From contig CAWFCQ010000002.1 of assembly GCA_963814375.1 (NCBI GenBank), positions 42,864 through 106,863 of the forward strand: a stretch of 64,000 nucleotides of DNA, in the 5' to 3' direction. Positions 42,090 to 47,224 of this stretch are shown here, piece after piece. This stretch comes from an uncultured Chloroflexia bacterium (GTDB lineage: Bacteria > Chloroflexota > Limnocylindria > QHBO01). Under the pieces are notes generated by a model. That model worked only from the letters and a program-made list of their open reading frames with translations. It did no database searches and was not told the origin of the DNA. The translations under genes and the position numbers were made by a program. Numbering within the stretch: position 1 is the stretch's first letter; the number at the start of each line of letters is the position of its first letter.

Positions 42090-42689
42090 AGCTTCCGGGC
42101 TGGGCGATCGCGCTCGTCGCGGAAGTCTGCGCCGCTGCCGGCACCCAGCCGCCACGGCTCACGTGGCGGGCACGGAGAGGGGAGCATTCCACCGGGGTGA
42201 CCCGCCGGGACGCTCGGCGTGGTCTCGGTCCGTGCCGGAACCGATACGCTCGACCAGCGGCTCACCCTGCTGCACGAGCTCGCCCACTGGCTCTCGCCGT
42301 CACCGCGCCGCCATCGTGGCCGGGCGACACACCATGGGCGCGCCTTCTACACGATGGCATTCGACCTCTACCGCCGTCACGGCATTCCCGATGCGGATGC
42401 GCTGCGGCTGGAGTCGGGCCGCTATCGCAGCTCGCTCCGCCACGCTGCCGCCCTCGAGGTCTCGGGGGCCCTCGAGGCTCTGGCCGAGCATCGCGCATCT
42501 CTCCGCGCCCGTCCGCGGCGGCGCTGGCGCGTCCTGGTCGCGGAGCATGTCATCCGTCTCGAGCGCTCCGGGCGGTGGACCGTCTGCTCGCGCTGCGGTC
42601 AGCGCGTCGTTGGCCAGAACCTCGCCCGGCTGCGGCGCACGCGCCGTCCCGTGTCGCACGTCCTGATGACGAGCGCCGAGGCGTCCTGA
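42086..42689 (+). pseudogene. SprT-like zinc metallopeptidase with C-terminal CxxC; split by apparent +1 frameshift at ~42215 (possible sequencing error)
   Basis: MKLPGW...GVTRRDA joins GVVSVRAGTD...LLHELAHW...HHGRAF...CSRC; span 604 nt = 3n+1. Confidence 0.7.
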
Positions 42690-43645: not shown

Positions 43646-44764
43646 ATGTCCGATCTGCCCCTCACCGGGATCCGCGTCGCAGACCTGAGCCGGGTTTTGG
43701 CCGGGCCGTTCGCGACGATGCTGCTGGGCGATCTCGGCGCGGACGTCATCAAGGTCGAGCCGCCGGATGGTGACGAGACCCGGACATGGGGACCGCCGTG
43801 GTGGGGGGATCCGTCAGATCGGCGTAGCGCCTATTTCGCATCGGTCAATCGCAACAAGCGCAGCATCGTGCTCGACCTGCGCACCGATGAAGGTCGCGTC
43901 ACCCTGGACCGCCTCCTGGCGCGCAGCGATCTGCTCGTCCACAACTACCGGCCGTCGACCGCCCTTCGCCTGGGCCTCGAGACCGATGCGCTCCGCGAGC
44001 GCCACCCTGACCTCGTTGTCGCCACCGTGGGTGGCTTTCCCGGCGCCGATGCCGAACGTCCCGCCTACGACCTGCTGGCGCAGGCGGTCTCCGGGCTGAT
44101 GTCGGTGACCGGGGAGGCCGATGGTCCGCCGATGAAGGTCGGCGTGGCGCTGCTCGACCTCATCGCCGGGCTCGAGTGCGCCGTCGGGGCGCTCGCCGCG
44201 CTCGTCGGTCGCGGTCGCGGTTCGGGCGTCGCCACCGTGCAGGTGAACCTCGTCGAGGCAGGCGTCACCTCGCTGATCAACGTCCTCGGCAACTACCTCG
44301 CGACCGGCGTCGAGCCTGGGCGACATGGCAATGCGCATCCGAACATCGCGCCGTATCAGGCGTTCTCGGCGCGCGACGGCCATCTCGTGATCGCCGTTGG
44401 TAACGACGCGCAGTTCGGTCGGCTCCTCGCCGCACTCGGGCTCGAGGATCCCGACGGGCGTTTCGCGACGAACGCGCTGCGGGTGGCCGCGCGCGAGGAG
44501 CTGTCGGCGTGGCTCGGCGGAGCGATCGGACGATGGGAGCGTGGTCAGCTCGTGGCCGCGCTGTCCGAGGCCGACGTGCCCGCGGGGCCGGTCAACAATG
44601 TGCCCGACGCACTTTCGGCTATGGGCGACGGATGGGTTAAGGAGCTCGACGGTGTGCGCGTGGCGCCCGGTCCGATGCGCATCGACGATCAGCTCACGCC
44701 GCTGCGACGACCATCCCCACGCCTGGGCGAGCACACCGACGAGGTGCTCGCGGAACTCGAATGA
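43646..44764 (+). CDS. CaiB/BaiF (class III) CoA transferase
   Basis: PLTGIRVADLSRVLAGPF, LGDLGADVIKVE, NRNKRSI, YDLLAQAVSGLM, PRLGEHT. Confidence 0.93.
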   Translation: MSDLPLTGIRVADLSRVLAGPFATMLLGDLGADVIKVEPPDGDETRTWGPPWWGDPSDRRSAYFASVNRNKRSIVLDLRTDEGRVTLDRLLARSDLLVHNYRPSTALRLGLETDALRERHPDLVVATVGGFPGADAERPAYDLLAQAVSGLMSVTGEADGPPMKVGVALLDLIAGLECAVGALAALVGRGRGSGVATVQVNLVEAGVTSLINVLGNYLATGVEPGRHGNAHPNIAPYQAFSARDGHLVIAVGNDAQFGRLLAALGLEDPDGRFATNALRVAAREELSAWLGGAIGRWERGQLVAALSEADVPAGPVNNVPDALSAMGDGWVKELDGVRVAPGPMRIDDQLTPLRRPSPRLGEHTDEVLAELE

Positions 44765-44768
44765 GGAA

Positions 44769-44844
44769 TGGAGCGGGAGACGGGATTCGAACCCGCGACA
44801 GCCGGCTTGGAAGGCCGGTACTCTTCCAACTGAGTTACTCCCGC
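44769..44844 (-). tRNA. tRNA-Gly(TCC), 76 nt, CCA encoded
   Basis: Reverse complement GCGGGAGTAACTCAGTTGGAAGAGTACCGGCCTTCCAAGCCGGCTGTCGCGGGTTCGAATCCCGTCTCCCGCTCCA; acceptor stem GCGGGAG/CTCCCGC, anticodon arm CCGGC-CTTCCAA-GCCGG, GGTTCGAATCC T-arm. Confidence 0.97.
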
Positions 44845-45461
44845 GCGGAGCGCGCTACCCACGTCCTCAGACGGTGGCAGTTCGCGCAGACGATATCGCA
44901 TTTCGCGACCTCGCCCAAGATTGTCGCAGTGGACTGCCGGCCGACCATTCGCGTAACCGTATAGAGCTTGTCGGCAGGATCGCGGTGATCGAAGTCCATC
45001 GAGCATGCCTCGAAGCGTCCGCTGCAGTCTGCGCACGGCACGTCGCGAAGCCCGTCCAGGAGTCTGACCTGCTCTCTCCATTTCCGGAGCCTCAGGACCT
45101 GCGAAGGCGCCTTCGACGCATCCCTTCTCGGTCGCCTGCGCTCTGTGTCGCGAGTCCGGAGTCGGTGGCAGTTGACGCAGACGATGTCGCATTTCGCTAC
45201 TTCCGCGAGAACCCGCTGCGTGGACATGAGCATCGCGCGGCCGGTCATCACGTTGAATGACTTCGTCGACGGATCTCGATGGTCGAAGTCCATCTGGTGA
45301 GGCTTGAGCTGCCTGCCGCAATCCGTGCACGGGACGCGTCGCAGGTCGCGGAGGAGCTCGACCATGCCCGCCTGCCGAACTCGCACGCGCTGGAGCTCGA
45401 GCTCGCGATTCCGCGCGTAGTACTCGACGTTGTATGGGCGTTGGCTGCGTCTGCGCGACAT
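44835..45461 (-). CDS. Tandem double HNH (betabetaalpha-Me) zinc-finger endonuclease-like protein (208 aa)
   Basis: Two internal repeats each with CxxC...MDFDHRDP...EVAKCDIVC(V/A)NCHRLRT; basic N-terminal helix; consensus promoter immediately upstream. Confidence 0.85.
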   Translation of the reverse strand: MSRRRSQRPYNVEYYARNRELELQRVRVRQAGMVELLRDLRRVPCTDCGRQLKPHQMDFDHRDPSTKSFNVMTGRAMLMSTQRVLAEVAKCDIVCVNCHRLRTRDTERRRPRRDASKAPSQVLRLRKWREQVRLLDGLRDVPCADCSGRFEACSMDFDHRDPADKLYTVTRMVGRQSTATILGEVAKCDIVCANCHRLRTWVARSARE

Positions 45462-45466
45462 GCACG

Positions 45467-45485
45467 ATTATAGCACAGATGTTCT
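45467..45485 (-). promoter_or_regulatory. Extended -10 promoter (TGcTATAAT) overlapped by a putative LexA/SOS box (AGAAC-ATCT-GTGCT)
   Basis: Minus strand reads TAGAACATCTGTGCTATAATCGTGC-ATG; TATAAT ends 5 nt before ATG 45461; box differs by one base from AGAAC-N4-GTTCT. Confidence 0.75.
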
Positions 45486-45637
45486 ATTTACCCTCACAAA
45501 GGTGGCGCGGACGGCCATGCAATCCACCGAACTCCTCTTGACCGCACACCTAGACTTACGCCGCGGCCCGGCAACATGAGCCAGGCGGGAGGCTCCTGAC
45601 CGGACCGTTCGGGGGGCACACCGAGGAGGATTGGCAC

Positions 45638-47224
45638 GTGACAGCTACTGCGCAGTCCCCGGACCCAGCGTCCCCGACCCTCGCGCGCAACGCCATCGGC
45701 CTTACCGAGGTCCTGTTCCAGTCGATCACGCACATGGCGCCGGCCGTCGCCACTGCGATCTCGATCGGCGCCGCGACCGCCTTCGCCGGCGGGATCACGC
45801 CGCTCGCCCTTGTGTTCGCCATGATCGCGGTGCTCTTCACCGCATATTCGATGAGCGAGCTGGCGCGTCACCTGCCCTCGGCGGGTGGGATGTACACCTA
45901 TGTCGGGCGCGGGCTCGGCTCGTTCTTCGGCTGGCTGGTCGCCTGGTCGTTCGCCTTCGCCGAGCCCCTGATCATGCCGATTCTGCTCGGCGGCTTCGGC
46001 TTCTACGGGGCGATCTTCCTGTCGACCTACCTCGGCATCGAGTTCGAGATGGCCTGGATCGTCCTGGCGCTCGTGTGTGCGGCGCTCGTGTGGTTCCTCA
46101 ACTACCGCGGCATCGCGCTCTCGACTCGAACGGGAGTGGCCCTCGGCCTGATCGAGATCGGGATCTTCCTGCTCATCTCGACGCTCCTGATCGTCAACGC
46201 CGAGGAGAACACGCTGAGTGTCTTCGTCCCCGGGGAGGCGGGCCTGCTTCCGGCGTTCCAGGGGATGATCTTCTGCCTCCTGGCATTCATCGGCTTCGAG
46301 GCCGCCGCCCCGCTCGGCGAGGAGACGGAGGAACCGCGGCGCACGATCCCGAAGGCGGTGATCTACTCGGCGGTCCTCGTCGGCGTCTTCTATGTCTTCA
46401 ACATGTACGCCGCGACGGTGTACTTCGGTCCCGACAACATGACCGACTTCCTGGCTGCCAATGACGGCGACCCGTGGGGTGGGATGGCGACCGAGGTGAT
46501 GGGCACGCTCGGCGGCCTGCTCGTGATCTTCGCGATCCTCAACAGCTGCATCGCGAACGCGAACTCGAGCGCAACGGCGGCCACGCGTTCACTGTTCGCG
46601 ATGGGCCGGGCCACCCTGATCACGCGCTGGTTCGCAACGATCCACCCGACATACAGGTCACCGGTGAACGCGGTCCACTTCCAGACGATTCTGGCGGTCA
46701 TCGTCGCCATCGGGATCGGGCTCGCCCTCCCTGACGACCCGATTCCGGGAGCACCCGGGCTCAACGTCTACATCTGGCTCGGGACCGCCGTCGGGCTGCT
46801 GTTTGCCGGGATGTACATCCTGGTGAATCTCGCCTGCATCGGCTACTTCCTGCGCGAGGGCAGGAGCGAGTTCAACCCGCTGAAGCACGTGGTGGTGCCG
46901 ATCCTCGGCGTGATCGCGATGATCCCGGCGGTATTGGCCGTGATCGGCGGCGTCACCATCCCGATCCTCGATGTCGAGCTCGCCCCGTACGAGAACTCGC
47001 TGCGCTGGACGGCACCGGTCGTCGGCGTGTGGGTCCTGCTCGGGATCGTCTTCTACTTCGTGCTCCGGGCCAGGAACCCGGAGGCGCTGGAGCGCGTGGA
47101 CGATGTCTACGGCGGCGAGGATGCACCCGGTCGAGCAGCCCGCCAGCTCCTGACCGATGCGGGCCGGCGGACGACCGCCGGCCCGTTCGCTACGCGAAGA
47201 TCCCGAGGGGGCAGTGGGCGGTGA
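45638..47224 (+). CDS. APC-family amino acid permease (native stop probably 47153; apparent +1 in CCC run 47126-47128)
   Basis: SITHMAPA, PSAGGMYTY, FIGFEAAAPLGEE; GAGGAGG RBS; removing one C gives DAPVEQPASS-stop just before the hairpin at 47160. Confidence 0.9.
   Translation: MTATAQSPDPASPTLARNAIGLTEVLFQSITHMAPAVATAISIGAATAFAGGITPLALVFAMIAVLFTAYSMSELARHLPSAGGMYTYVGRGLGSFFGWLVAWSFAFAEPLIMPILLGGFGFYGAIFLSTYLGIEFEMAWIVLALVCAALVWFLNYRGIALSTRTGVALGLIEIGIFLLISTLLIVNAEENTLSVFVPGEAGLLPAFQGMIFCLLAFIGFEAAAPLGEETEEPRRTIPKAVIYSAVLVGVFYVFNMYAATVYFGPDNMTDFLAANDGDPWGGMATEVMGTLGGLLVIFAILNSCIANANSSATAATRSLFAMGRATLITRWFATIHPTYRSPVNAVHFQTILAVIVAIGIGLALPDDPIPGAPGLNVYIWLGTAVGLLFAGMYILVNLACIGYFLREGRSEFNPLKHVVVPILGVIAMIPAVLAVIGGVTIPILDVELAPYENSLRWTAPVVGVWVLLGIVFYFVLRARNPEALERVDDVYGGEDAPGRAARQLLTDAGRRTTAGPFATRRSRGGSGR
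47160..47185. terminator. Hairpin between convergent permease and amidase genes
   Basis: CGGGCCGGCGG-acga-CCGCCGGCCCG perfect 11-bp stem. Confidence 0.6.

Follow-up and report, generated by a model that had tools for sequence, protein, structure and literature searches.

To our knowledge, nearly all free-standing homing endonucleases known to date come from phages and organelles. The F-Tfl HNH enzymes of bacteriophage T5 are free-standing homing endonucleases located in the tRNA gene region of the phage. Endonucleases may also act together with introns: F-CphI, a free-standing enzyme found at the psbA intron site of cyanophages, cooperates with a group I intron devoid of an ORF, a process referred to as collaborative homing, and I-SspI is the intron-encoded endonuclease of a tRNA-fMet gene. 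Control by SOS operators has been described for the HNH colicins E7 and E9 and for the mycobacterial REP13E12 family of HNH repeats. The tRNA gene region of bacteriophage T4 harbors SegB, a free-standing homing endonuclease of the GIY-YIG type (PMC2330249), the nuclease fold of which differs from HNH.

The window analyzed here, a stretch of 64,000 nucleotides from an uncultured Chloroflexia bacterium, contains a double-HNH gene adjoining tRNA-Gly(UCC). Like segB and the F-Tfl genes, it is a stand-alone endonuclease gene situated by tRNA genes without an intron or intein, and its presence varies between relatives; by analogy, a tRNA region lacking the gene would be expected to be cleaved, with the neighboring tRNA sequence then being co-converted. 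In contrast to SegB and F-Tfl, the gene resides on cellular chromosomes beside an essential single-copy tRNA, encodes two HNH units in one chain, overlaps the tRNA gene and is preceded by a putative leaderless promoter with a LexA box, both read from the sequence. The reading that we favor, with a probability of roughly 0.55, is that of a selfish, free-standing endonuclease of the homing type, which targets, or lives at, tRNA genes. The preliminary description had presented the locus as a new system, which is too strong since single-unit homologs occur in actinophage tRNA clusters and tandem-HNH folds in giant viruses. Its view of a selfish, tRNA-associated homing element is supported in part: the comparative data bear out the tie to tRNA genes, presence and absence at a single slot and decay in situ, but not recent spread, which is not evident.

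Anatomy of the locus

Both the ORF and the ARAGORN coordinates confirm that a two-unit HNH ORF lies upstream of, and co-oriented with, the tRNA gene (Table 1). A whole-genome tRNA scan revealed no other canonical tRNA-Gly(UCC) gene in the assembly, and sequence comparison reveals an unusual A10:U25 pair in its D-stem. The stop codon of the ORF is formed by U8-A9-A10 of the tRNA, and the acceptor stem encodes the conserved C-terminal "..ERE" of the protein. An identical junction is found in 39 of 78 orthologs, and the stop codon falls inside or past the tRNA in 65 of the 78. The ORF is located between its own promoter and tRNA-Gly(UCC). Since Rfam matched the tRNA alone at the locus, the gene is regarded as stand-alone, outside any intron or intein.

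Table 1. Features of the double-HNH/tRNA-Gly(UCC) locus (window coordinates)
Feature	Position	Strand	Basis or remarks
tRNA-Gly(UCC)	44769..44844	-	ARAGORN; Rfam tRNA, 70 bits; whole-genome tRNA scan; sequence comparison
ORF/tRNA overlap, 10 nt	44835..44844	-	ORF end ..G CGG GAG TAA equals tRNA nucleotides 1-10
Double-HNH ORF P0001, 208 aa	44835..45461	-	ATG 45459-45461, TAA 44835-44837
Segment without counterpart in the syntenic HNH-less G022 allele	44845..45537	.	Three-way alignment; ORF synteny
HNH unit 2 (C143-H196): CxxC, DFDH, KCDIVCANCH	44874..45035	-	Near-invariant residues; unit comparison; AF2 model
Candidate internal -10 (TATCGT) in TGCGATATCGT, codons C-D-I-V of unit 2	44890..44900	-	Codon bias; HNH-less alleles
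HNH unit 1 (C45-H99): CxxC, DFDH, KCDIVCVNCH	45165..45329	-	Near-invariant residues; AF2 beta-beta-alpha elements
N-terminal basic helix, residues 8-40 (NVxYYxRNR..RVRVRQ)	45342..45440	-	AF2 helix; conserved columns
Extended -10 promoter TGcTATAAT	45467..45475	-	Read from sequence; spacing recurs in orthologs
LexA (SOS) box-like palindrome GAACATCTGTGC	45473..45484	-	One mismatch from GAAC-N4-GTTC; overlaps the -10

In the HNH-less allele of G022, the segment specific to the occupied allele is replaced by an unrelated spacer of about 200 bp. The neighbors are ordinary metabolic genes, coding for a luciferase-like oxidoreductase, a family III CoA-transferase, an amino-acid permease, an acetamidase and an ArsA ATPase. 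The compositional dip noted in the preliminary description is real but smaller than its line counts implied: the ORF has a GC content of 63.9% vs 69.7% genome-wide and a GC3 of 79% vs 82-92% in neighboring genes.

tRNA genes are classic insertion sites of genomic islands, and it might be asked whether the gene is cargo of an integrase-type island or of a prophage remnant, the more so as the GC content of the ORF is somewhat lowered and its homologs are phage genes. This reading is very improbable and is effectively refuted by the anatomy of the locus. As had already been noted and is confirmed here, the genes around the ORF include neither an integrase nor a transposase, and the locus bears no duplicated tRNA end or direct repeat of the tRNA 3' end that could represent an att site. 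Other phage genes were not found either. Furthermore, the gene lies on the 5' side of the tRNA, the wrong side for such an element, and overlaps it, the differential segment measures merely ~690 bp, and the same arrangement recurs in 77 species.

A protein with two HNH units

Both units share the pattern CxxC..DFDHRDP..KCDIVCxNCHRLRT. They had been called near-identical, which holds for the motif blocks but overstates the overall likeness, the identity being 58% over 72 aa; at the DNA level, a block of 50 nt is 84% identical between the units. The CxxC pairs (C45/C48 and C95/C98 in unit 1, C143/C146 and C192/C195 in unit 2) occupy columns that show little or no variation in two alignments, one of 16 and one of 81 sequences, and are predicted to form a structural zinc site around each motif. 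The catalytic-type residues D60-H61, N97 and H99 of unit 1 and D158-H159, N194 and H196 of unit 2 are conserved and map to strands and helix of the AF2 model, which has a pLDDT of 94.4. The N-terminal basic helix of the model presumably contacts DNA. A two-unit architecture is kept in every tRNA-specific subfamily, either fused or as two adjacent ORFs, which fits a cutter with two active sites. If this holds true, the protein would be a natural single-chain, two-site HNH cutter with specificity for tRNA genes and a possible scaffold for engineering. A single ancient duplication of the units did not emerge from the unit tree, which groups sequences by tRNA class before it groups them by unit, a topology for which independent duplications and concerted evolution are indistinguishable over the 72 columns used.

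Searches with the protein in Pfam, including its HNH models, and in NCBIfam returned no significant match, and the same was true for a sequence search of the PDB. In a PDB fold search, the HNH domain of Cas9, Gme HNH and Cap5 all scored at a non-significant E > 0.5. The PHROG HNH families 3106 and 2255 match both units with E-values of 1.9e-47 and 6.2e-41. Phage HNH proteins also match the predicted fold unit by unit, and HNH models of BFVD match it at E-values down to 5e-13. The closest phage homologs, which are true sequence homologs, include gp106 of the Streptomyces phage StarPlatinum and gp144 of the Mycobacterium phage Myrna, which are 39-47% identical per unit and located within tRNA clusters. 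These actinophage HNH genes, of the PHROG 3106/2255 type, lie within 10-55 nt of tRNA genes. They differ from the gene described here in that their products comprise one unit of ~115 aa, in their phage context and in the lack of a tRNA fusion. Tandem-HNH proteins of the giant viruses Medusavirus, Clandestinovirus, Pithovirus and Marseillevirus (BFVD) match over the full length with both units, at a TM(query) of 0.65-0.73 over ~200 columns in a comparison of predicted with predicted structures. Unlike the present protein, they measure 277-545 aa, belong to eukaryotic viruses and have no known link to tRNA genes, and their identity to it is 18-32%. Among metagenomic proteins, 2975 homologs of ~210 aa were found. 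The family is large and seemingly undescribed, occupying both soil bacteria of the Limnocylindria and tRNA clusters of actinophages; it counts ~3000 metagenomic proteins and, throughout this class of bacteria, is seated at essential tRNA genes of the chromosome.

Linkage to tRNA genes across the family

All 77 orthologs that could be evaluated, which represent as many species of Limnocylindria, adjoin tRNA-Gly(UCC), and all paralog loci surveyed adjoin genes for Gly-CCC, Pro-UGG, Arg-ACG/UCG/UCU or Asn-like tRNAs, so that the tRNA association reported for one locus extends to its homologs. Among distant homologs in other Chloroflexota classes, seven of eight adjoin tRNAs. Adjacency to tRNA genes is far beyond chance. 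The placement on the 5' side, emphasized in the preliminary description, applies to the Gly(UCC) copy in the window but not to the family as a whole, as paralogs are found in part at tRNA 3' ends or downstream of intron-bearing tRNAs.

In one paralog class, the gene follows an Asn-like tRNA gene at a distance of 100-500 nt; the identity calls of ARAGORN vary for the intron-bearing tRNAs. In many genomes this tRNA gene carries a group I intron in the anticodon loop, and in others it carries none. The arrangement resembles collaborative homing, and intron and nuclease may cooperate in this class; in contrast, no intron lies near the double-HNH copy of the window. Endonucleases of phage tRNA clusters, tRNA loci of cells and group I introns of tRNAs are thereby connected within one evolutionary family.

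A predicted leaderless promoter overlapping a LexA box

The extended -10 element ends 5 nt before the ATG, which implies a leaderless mRNA. A consensus promoter/terminator scan of positions 44600-45700 found nothing, and the extended -10 was missed by the scanner because it has no -35 element. Box, -10 and start codon recur with this spacing in orthologs. Of 76 orthologs, 38 have a LexA box without mismatch and a further 29 have one with a single mismatch. The loci, 443 kb in all, contain 46 perfect boxes, 40 of which lie just upstream of an HNH start, a local enrichment of roughly 260-fold by our own estimate. In the source genome, lexA, an imuA-like gene, dnaE2 and a helicase gene have this box upstream as well. 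The mismatched half-site of the window's copy, GTGC, is a variant of this clade and creates the extended -10 TGcTATAAT; judged by its sequence, the promoter with this variant looks active. Taken as a whole, the gene is probably switched on by DNA damage via LexA. If so, and if the homing-type reading holds, it would be a selfish gene wired to the host SOS response and firing at a time when the cell can repair breaks by recombination. Colicins E7/E9 and REP13E12 likewise combine an HNH nuclease gene of repeated or mobile character with an SOS operator. Unlike the present gene, these belong to unrelated HNH subfamilies, lack a tRNA association and serve bacteriocin release or constitute repeat elements.

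Patchy presence, decay and selection

The double-HNH gene is present in 7 of 63 genomes of the genus and in 68 of 401 of the class, i.e., the family is carried by ~17% of the Limnocylindria species sampled. As the genomes are without exception MAGs, assembly gaps may account for some absences, but the key empty alleles are assembled across the locus. The syntenic slot between CoA-transferase, tRNA and permease holds the gene in G000, G398 and G041 and lacks it in G022 and G008. On a CoA-transferase tree, the six HNH-positive taxa are scattered, requiring 6 changes and showing no clustering. In six genomes, pseudogenes lie beside tRNA-Gly(UCC), damaged by a stop codon, a frameshift, an internal deletion or a 5' truncation. 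Comparison of the locus across relatives hence reveals a patchy gene whose single syntenic slot is occupied in some of them and empty in others, and which is decaying in several genomes. A profile search of the translated upstream regions of 43 HNH-less alleles yielded no significant protein-level remnant, and some HNH-less alleles hold short nucleotide scraps exceeding shuffled controls. Intact copies are under purifying selection (dN/dS 0.09-0.23); relative to the closest orthologs, the dN/dS is 0.13-0.18 over the whole length and not confined to the 3' end.

An all-against-all comparison of cassettes and flanks detected no near-identical cassettes in different species, the maximum being 84% at the nucleotide level. 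In pairs with shared flanks, cassette divergence parallels or exceeds flank divergence. With cassettes and flanks diverging at roughly the same pace, there is no evident sign of recent horizontal spread, and recent horizontal transfer was dismissed for the same reasons. HNH identity within the genus roughly follows host divergence, and incongruence at the genus level is only mild. The co-divergence of cassettes and flanks is explained equally well by homing and by a long vertical residence in which the gene was lost repeatedly. Exact-pattern scans of metagenome contigs for alleles of the same population returned zero.

These observations bear on an alternative according to which the gene is a domesticated accessory nuclease of the SOS regulon, derived from tRNA-cluster homing endonucleases, inherited vertically and lost where unneeded; it might, for example, cut incoming phage or other foreign DNA at tRNA genes or process damaged DNA. 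Conservation of the LexA box across most orthologs and many paralogs speaks for such a role, as do the co-divergence of cassettes with flanks, the lack of visible recent transfer and a dN/dS of 0.1-0.2 over deep divergence, which could mean a host-level function. Homologous HNH genes in phage tRNA clusters would moreover provide a plausible foreign target. However, the gene is found in only 11-17% of species, scattered on the tree, and has left several pseudogenes and remnants; PADLOC defence models yielded no match; and a host function leaves the strict fusion to tRNA genes of many identities unexplained. LexA control is, besides, also common in selfish elements, prophages, ICEs and integron integrases being commonly LexA-controlled. 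We consider domestication unlikely, albeit the most serious competitor of a selfish homing-type endonuclease.

A candidate tRNA promoter within unit 2

The candidate internal -10 TATCGT lies 45 nt upstream of tRNA-Gly(UCC). The Asp codon at this site is GAT in 65 of 72 copies of unit 2, and the corresponding codon is GAC in 58 of 72 copies of unit 1. TATCGT or GATATCGT is a common -10 directly upstream of the tRNA in 11 of 43 HNH-less alleles. Judged by these sequence patterns, unit 2 probably contains a promoter of the tRNA. Decayed remnants of the gene all retain its 3' part, and it is proposed that deletions spare this part because the tRNA relies on the unit-2 promoter. If the proposed mechanism holds, the family would thus offer a concrete cause for the capture of an essential gene's promoter function.

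The same evidence could be taken to mean that the gene is a decaying relic, i.e., an inactive nuclease whose 3' part persists as the promoter carrier of an essential tRNA and whose 5' part still awaits deletion. The bias of unit 2 toward the GATATCGT codons, the occurrence of TATCGT as a -10 in HNH-less alleles, the invariable retention of the 3' part in remnants and the mutated LexA half-site of this clade would all be expected of such a relic. On the other hand, the ORF is intact, the catalytic-type residues are complete in both units, purifying selection relative to the closest orthologs acts over the whole length, and the GTGC variant makes an extended -10 resembling an active promoter. 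A relic is therefore an improbable explanation, more so than domestication.

Proposed mechanism and divergence of linked tRNA alleles

Under the favored reading of a homing-type selfish endonuclease, the following course of events can be envisaged. DNA damage or DNA entry would lead to cleavage of LexA and to synthesis of the leaderless HNH mRNA. The two-headed enzyme would then cut both strands of a tRNA-Gly allele lacking the gene, at or near the 5' boundary of the tRNA. RecA-dependent repair from the occupied allele would copy the gene, often along with adjacent tRNA sequence, into the broken allele. Insertion would part the tRNA from its own promoter, so that the tRNA would thereafter rely on the promoter inside unit 2. 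In alleles with the stop codon inside the tRNA, processing by RNase P would generate a non-stop mRNA and might thereby keep enzyme levels low.

In its fullest form, the proposal would be that of an SOS-timed, tRNA-gene-specific chromosomal homing system that is hard to delete, as the promoter native to the tRNA is ousted and one from unit 2 takes its place. Nuclease activity or co-conversion would drive an unusually fast, compensated evolution of essential tRNAs, and subfamilies would have changed targets between Gly, Pro, Arg and Asn tRNAs, one of them working with an anticodon-loop group I intron. This extended scheme is put forward tentatively and is considerably more doubtful than the homing-type reading as such.

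The tRNA alleles themselves are in keeping with an effect of the gene on its neighbor. While the majority tRNA allele is 95-100% conserved in 37 HNH-less genomes of the genus, HNH-linked alleles are 84-93% identical to it, and in the sister pair G041 (with the gene) and G008 (without it), 12 of 76 tRNA positions differ. This divergence suggests action on the tRNA gene, with co-conversion, selection for resistance and mutagenic repair being indistinguishable as its causes. If true, it would explain concretely why tRNA genes that are elsewhere nearly invariant diverge so anomalously. A tRNA polymorphism marking immunity was also sought and discarded, as at no site do occupied and empty alleles differ cleanly. 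The hypervariability of linked tRNA alleles, the probable LexA/SOS control and the likely internal tRNA promoter are observations that go beyond the preliminary description.

Gene anatomy at the tRNA junction

The double-HNH gene had been described as lying directly upstream of, and co-oriented with, tRNA-Gly, and on the minus strand it indeed runs into tRNA-Gly(UCC). The 3′ end of the ORF reads ..TCC GCG CGG GAG TAA, its last 10 nt being nucleotides 1-10 of the tRNA and its stop codon being U8-A9-A10. Whole-genome ARAGORN analysis finds this tRNA to be the sole canonical tRNA-Gly(UCC) in the genome, a second call of 87 nt being atypical; it is therefore the housekeeping copy and not cargo. 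Neighbouring genes within the window encode a luciferase-like oxidoreductase, a family III CoA-transferase, an amino-acid permease, an acetamidase, and an ArsA-type ATPase. As claimed in the preliminary description, neither integrase nor transposase is present in the window, nor is an att-like repeat. Base composition, taken alone, says little: the GC content of the ORF is 63.9% versus 69.7% for the genome, and its GC3 is slightly below that of its neighbours.

A separate 156-aa ORF in the window, with a HELAHW (HExxH-type) motif, a C-terminal CxxC, and no Pfam match, could encode an uncharacterised small protein resembling metalloproteases, or be a non-gene in a high-GC region.

Coordinates of features in the window, in loci taken from relatives (L) and on contigs (C) of the window's own genome, G000
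Feature	Location	Strand	Remark
Double-HNH ORF	window 44835-45461	minus	208 aa
tRNA-Gly(UCC)	window 44769-44844	minus	ARAGORN; A10:U25
156-aa ORF	window 42219-42689	plus	
Slot, tRNA-Gly 5′ end to permease gene	window 44845-45637		varies across genus
Slot in G010 (HNH-less)	L061:3678-4600		Crp-family regulator
Slot in G008 (HNH-less)	L241:4000-5554		membrane-protein ORFs
Convergent paralog pairs (tRNA Pro-UGG, Arg-ACG)	L010:1836-1910, L028:1836-1910, L223, L248, L249		ORF end ~9 nt from tRNA 3′ end
Intron-bearing Asn-like tRNA	L021:817-1095	plus	
Intron-bearing Asn-like tRNAs	L015, L027, L029, L181-L183, L185-L187, L189, L191, L224, L229		
Intron-less tRNA-Asn(GUU) beside same HNH class	L180, L184, L228, L232		
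Further HNH-linked A10:U25 alleles	L067, L070, L076, L090, L091, L095, L098, L136, L137 and others		
Candidate SOS boxes of G000, outside window	C6:161612, C2:238180, C5:241460, C5:234276, C4:91240/91266, C6:159621/159654		
Mirrored duplicate, tRNA cluster Leu-Leu-Val..Phe-Gly-Gln-Cys-Leu	C4:430194-438316 vs C8:548447-556222		G000
Mirrored duplicate, Ala-tRNA/imuA-box region	C2:225206-238180 vs C5:241460-253561		G000

A putative nuclease with two active sites

The 208-aa protein is not recognised in Pfam and NCBIfam profile searches and matches none of the anti-phage defence models searched; the PHROG HNH-endonuclease families 3106 (E 1.9e-47) and 2255 (E 6.2e-41) each match it twice. Its two units share 58% identity over 72 aa, and each contains the motifs CxxC, DFDH(R)D, and KCDIVCxNCH, with columns that are invariant or nearly so in alignments of 16 and 81 homologs. 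AlphaFold2, run on the 81-sequence alignment, predicts beta-beta-alpha elements in each unit, preceded by a long helix (pLDDT 94.4, pTM 0.84). Comparison with solved structures returned weak HNH matches only (Cas9 HNH domain, Gme HNH, and Cap5, all E > 0.5); predicted viral structures align better, giant-virus 'HNH endonucleases' across both units (TM 0.65-0.73, E to 5e-13), actinophage HNH proteins unit by unit. From the conserved residues and the modelled fold it follows that the protein is a putative nuclease with two active sites. The pairing of units persists in every subfamily, either as a fused double or as two adjacent single-HNH ORFs, which fits a need for two active sites and hence a predicted double-strand cutter. 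In a tree of units, these cluster by tRNA class, so the pair has been re-created or homogenised within each lineage.

Association with tRNA genes across the family

In the protein database, 2975 homologs of ~210 aa are found, and those that carry a name are labelled Chloroflexota. A scan of one genome per species yielded 359 loci, the best 80 of which come from Limnocylindria/Chloroflexota MAGs almost without exception. Among these 80, the proposed tRNA association is borne out in all 77 evaluable orthologs, which have tRNA-Gly(UCC) directly 3′ of the ORF in the same orientation (the remaining 3 contigs stop short of the tRNA), and all paralog loci surveyed adjoin a tRNA as well. Together with the window's own copy, 78 junctions were evaluable: the stop codon lies inside the tRNA in 52 (at U8-A9-R10 in 39 of them), the ORF runs through the entire tRNA in 13, and the stop is placed 0-14 nt upstream in 12 and 94 nt upstream in one. 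The conserved C-terminal '..ERE' is the acceptor stem in translation. Where the stop is inside the tRNA, RNase P processing would yield a non-stop HNH mRNA, an effect that cannot be essential since 12/78 orthologs terminate ahead of it.

Within one family of the class, paralogs give 3-8 matches per genome, either as two single-HNH ORFs side by side or fused into one. They are found at Gly-CCC, at Pro-UGG (on its upstream side and co-oriented, or converging on the tRNA 3′ end), at Arg-ACG (between Arg-UCG and Arg-ACG), at Arg-UCU, and 100-500 nt downstream of Asn-like tRNAs. Placement on the 5′ side holds for the tRNA-Gly(UCC) orthologs and fails for those paralogs that converge on a tRNA 3′ end. 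Since orientation varies, the common factor is the tRNA gene as a DNA location rather than co-transcription, and the family tracks tRNA genes whichever the orientation. In other Chloroflexota classes, 7/8 loci of distant homologs lie next to a tRNA, and the phage proteins most closely related, StarPlatinum gp106 and Myrna gp144, are encoded within phage tRNA clusters. Full-text literature searches returned examples from phages (SegB, as well as HNH enzymes located in tRNA regions) and reviews on group I introns of tRNAs; a tandem HNH gene that is chromosomal, carries a LexA box and is fused to a tRNA gene was not described in the literature searched.

Many of the Asn-like tRNA genes (U1:A72, G73) that are flanked by a double-HNH member of the family have their anticodon loop interrupted by a group I intron ~205-215 nt long (Rfam RF00028, 66-82 bits). 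Joining the exons gives GUU in one intron class; in the other, ARAGORN calls Thr or Arg. Group I introns are not known to have been reported from bacterial tRNA-Asn genes.

LexA box and predicted leaderless mRNA

On the minus strand, the sequence directly 5′ of the HNH ATG is taaataGAACATCTGTGCtataatcgtgcATG, in which a GAAC-N4-GTTC palindrome, mismatched at one position, is joined to the extended -10 TGcTATAAT. This -10 ends 5 nt 5′ of the start codon, so that a leaderless mRNA is expected. Among orthologs, 38/76 have a perfect box and 29 more a box with one mismatch, always 12-25 nt 5′ of the start and fused to TAnnnT; TTGACA often stands 17-18 nt upstream, and the box recurs in many Gly-CCC paralogs. 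The 443 kb of ortholog loci contain 46 perfect boxes, and 40 of these are situated just 5′ of the HNH start. In the window's genome this box, likewise flanked by ata/tat, precedes lexA, an imuA-like gene, dnaE2, and a helicase gene, and is therefore the organism's LexA operator. LexA binding and induction at the HNH promoter are probable from this sequence evidence, and such control would time HNH expression to induced RecA-mediated repair.

The candidate SOS regulon of G000 comprises ataGAAC-N4-GTTCtat boxes before lexA, the imuA-like gene, dnaE2, and the helicase gene (DEAD/DEAH), and a double box before another ORF. Two mirrored duplicates on different contigs suggest two strains, or contamination, in this MAG (listed contamination 4.5%).

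Distribution, decay and divergence

Among the genomes compared, all of them MAGs, the gene is far from uniformly present: it occurs in 7/63 genomes of the genus and in 68/401 of the class (36/238 among high-quality genomes; 14/66 genera). When 30 members of the genus are placed on a CoA-transferase tree, its six HNH+ taxa require six changes, no fewer than shuffled labels, and HNH+ and HNH- genomes are close sisters (G041 and G008; G000 and G398 beside G022 and G010). HNH-less G022 retains the CoA-transferase/tRNA/permease synteny at ~80% nt identity, its slot being ~200 bp of unrelated spacer versus 693 bp (44845-45537) in the window. Decaying copies adjoin tRNA-Gly(UCC) in six genomes and exhibit in-frame stops plus a frameshift, internal deletion, or stepwise 5′ truncation to the last 48-54 codons.

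The best-fitting reading, to which we assign a probability of roughly 0.55, is a free-standing homing-type endonuclease, because of the anatomy, family-wide tRNA association, phage relatives, intron-associated paralogs, scatter, and decaying copies. Intact copies are under purifying selection (dN/dS 0.09-0.23), and this sustained selection, like the co-divergence of cassette and flanks, favours the main rival, a domesticated accessory SOS nuclease, which is judged less likely; the patchy distribution, decaying copies, and strict fusion to many different tRNAs speak against domestication. For the homing-type endonuclease, no sign of recent transfer between species emerged from the cassette and flank comparison: near-identical cassettes in different species were absent (best pair, 84% nt identity), and at loci with shared flanks cassette divergence equals or exceeds flank divergence, which argues for repeated loss and long residence. 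Within the genus, HNH identities follow host distance in rough outline, with mild incongruence.

Divergent tRNA alleles linked to the HNH gene

Across the phylogenetically non-independent genomes of the genus, one tRNA-Gly(UCC) sequence is common to 21 genomes and 37 are at least 95% identical to it, all HNH-less; in the seven HNH+ genomes the tRNA is 84-93% identical to that majority sequence. Compared with its counterparts in G022 and G010, both close relatives, the window tRNA differs in the D stem (A10:U25), the entire anticodon stem (compensated), and the T loop, and it is also unlike that of the HNH+ relative G398; the sisters G041 (HNH+) and G008 (HNH-) differ at 12/76 positions. Non-majority alleles also occur in some HNH-less genomes, where they are almost the same as alleles linked to HNH in related genera. 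A10:U25 replaces the usual G10:C25 in the window and in many HNH-linked alleles, turning the in-tRNA stop from TAG into TAA; A10 occurs in 0/43 HNH-less genus alleles examined. The divergence of linked alleles would be explained by co-conversion with diverged donors, by selection that favours resistance to self-cleavage, or by error-prone repair, and each implies action on the tRNA gene.

A candidate tRNA promoter inside unit 2

HNH-less alleles have a TAnnnT element ~10-14 nt 5′ of the tRNA (TAGGCT, TACGCT, TATGCT, TATCGT) and no LexA box. With zero spacer between HNH ORF and tRNA, the tRNA may be transcribed from within unit 2, the HNH unit nearer the tRNA, whose K-C-D-I-V codons read AAGTGCGATATCGT. 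The Asp codon of this motif is GAT in 65/72 unit-2 copies versus GAC in 58/72 unit-1 copies, a bias that points to a nucleotide-level constraint ~50 nt 5′ of the tRNA. The -10 of HNH-less alleles is TATCGT or GATATCGT in 11/43, several in the form TGCGATATCGT or AAGTGCGATATC, and three to six of these alleles match HNH 3′ ends at least as well as any of 860 shuffles. A promoter so placed would make the HNH 3′ part difficult to delete; the larger remnants all retain the promoter-candidate part of unit 2.

One HNH-less locus with a majority tRNA (L267, genome G394) has, 70 nt upstream of tRNA-Gly(UCC), an HNH-3′-end-like stretch, aagtgcg...ctgtcatcggcttc..cgaacgttcg, which suggests past HNH occupancy even in alleles that now seem empty.
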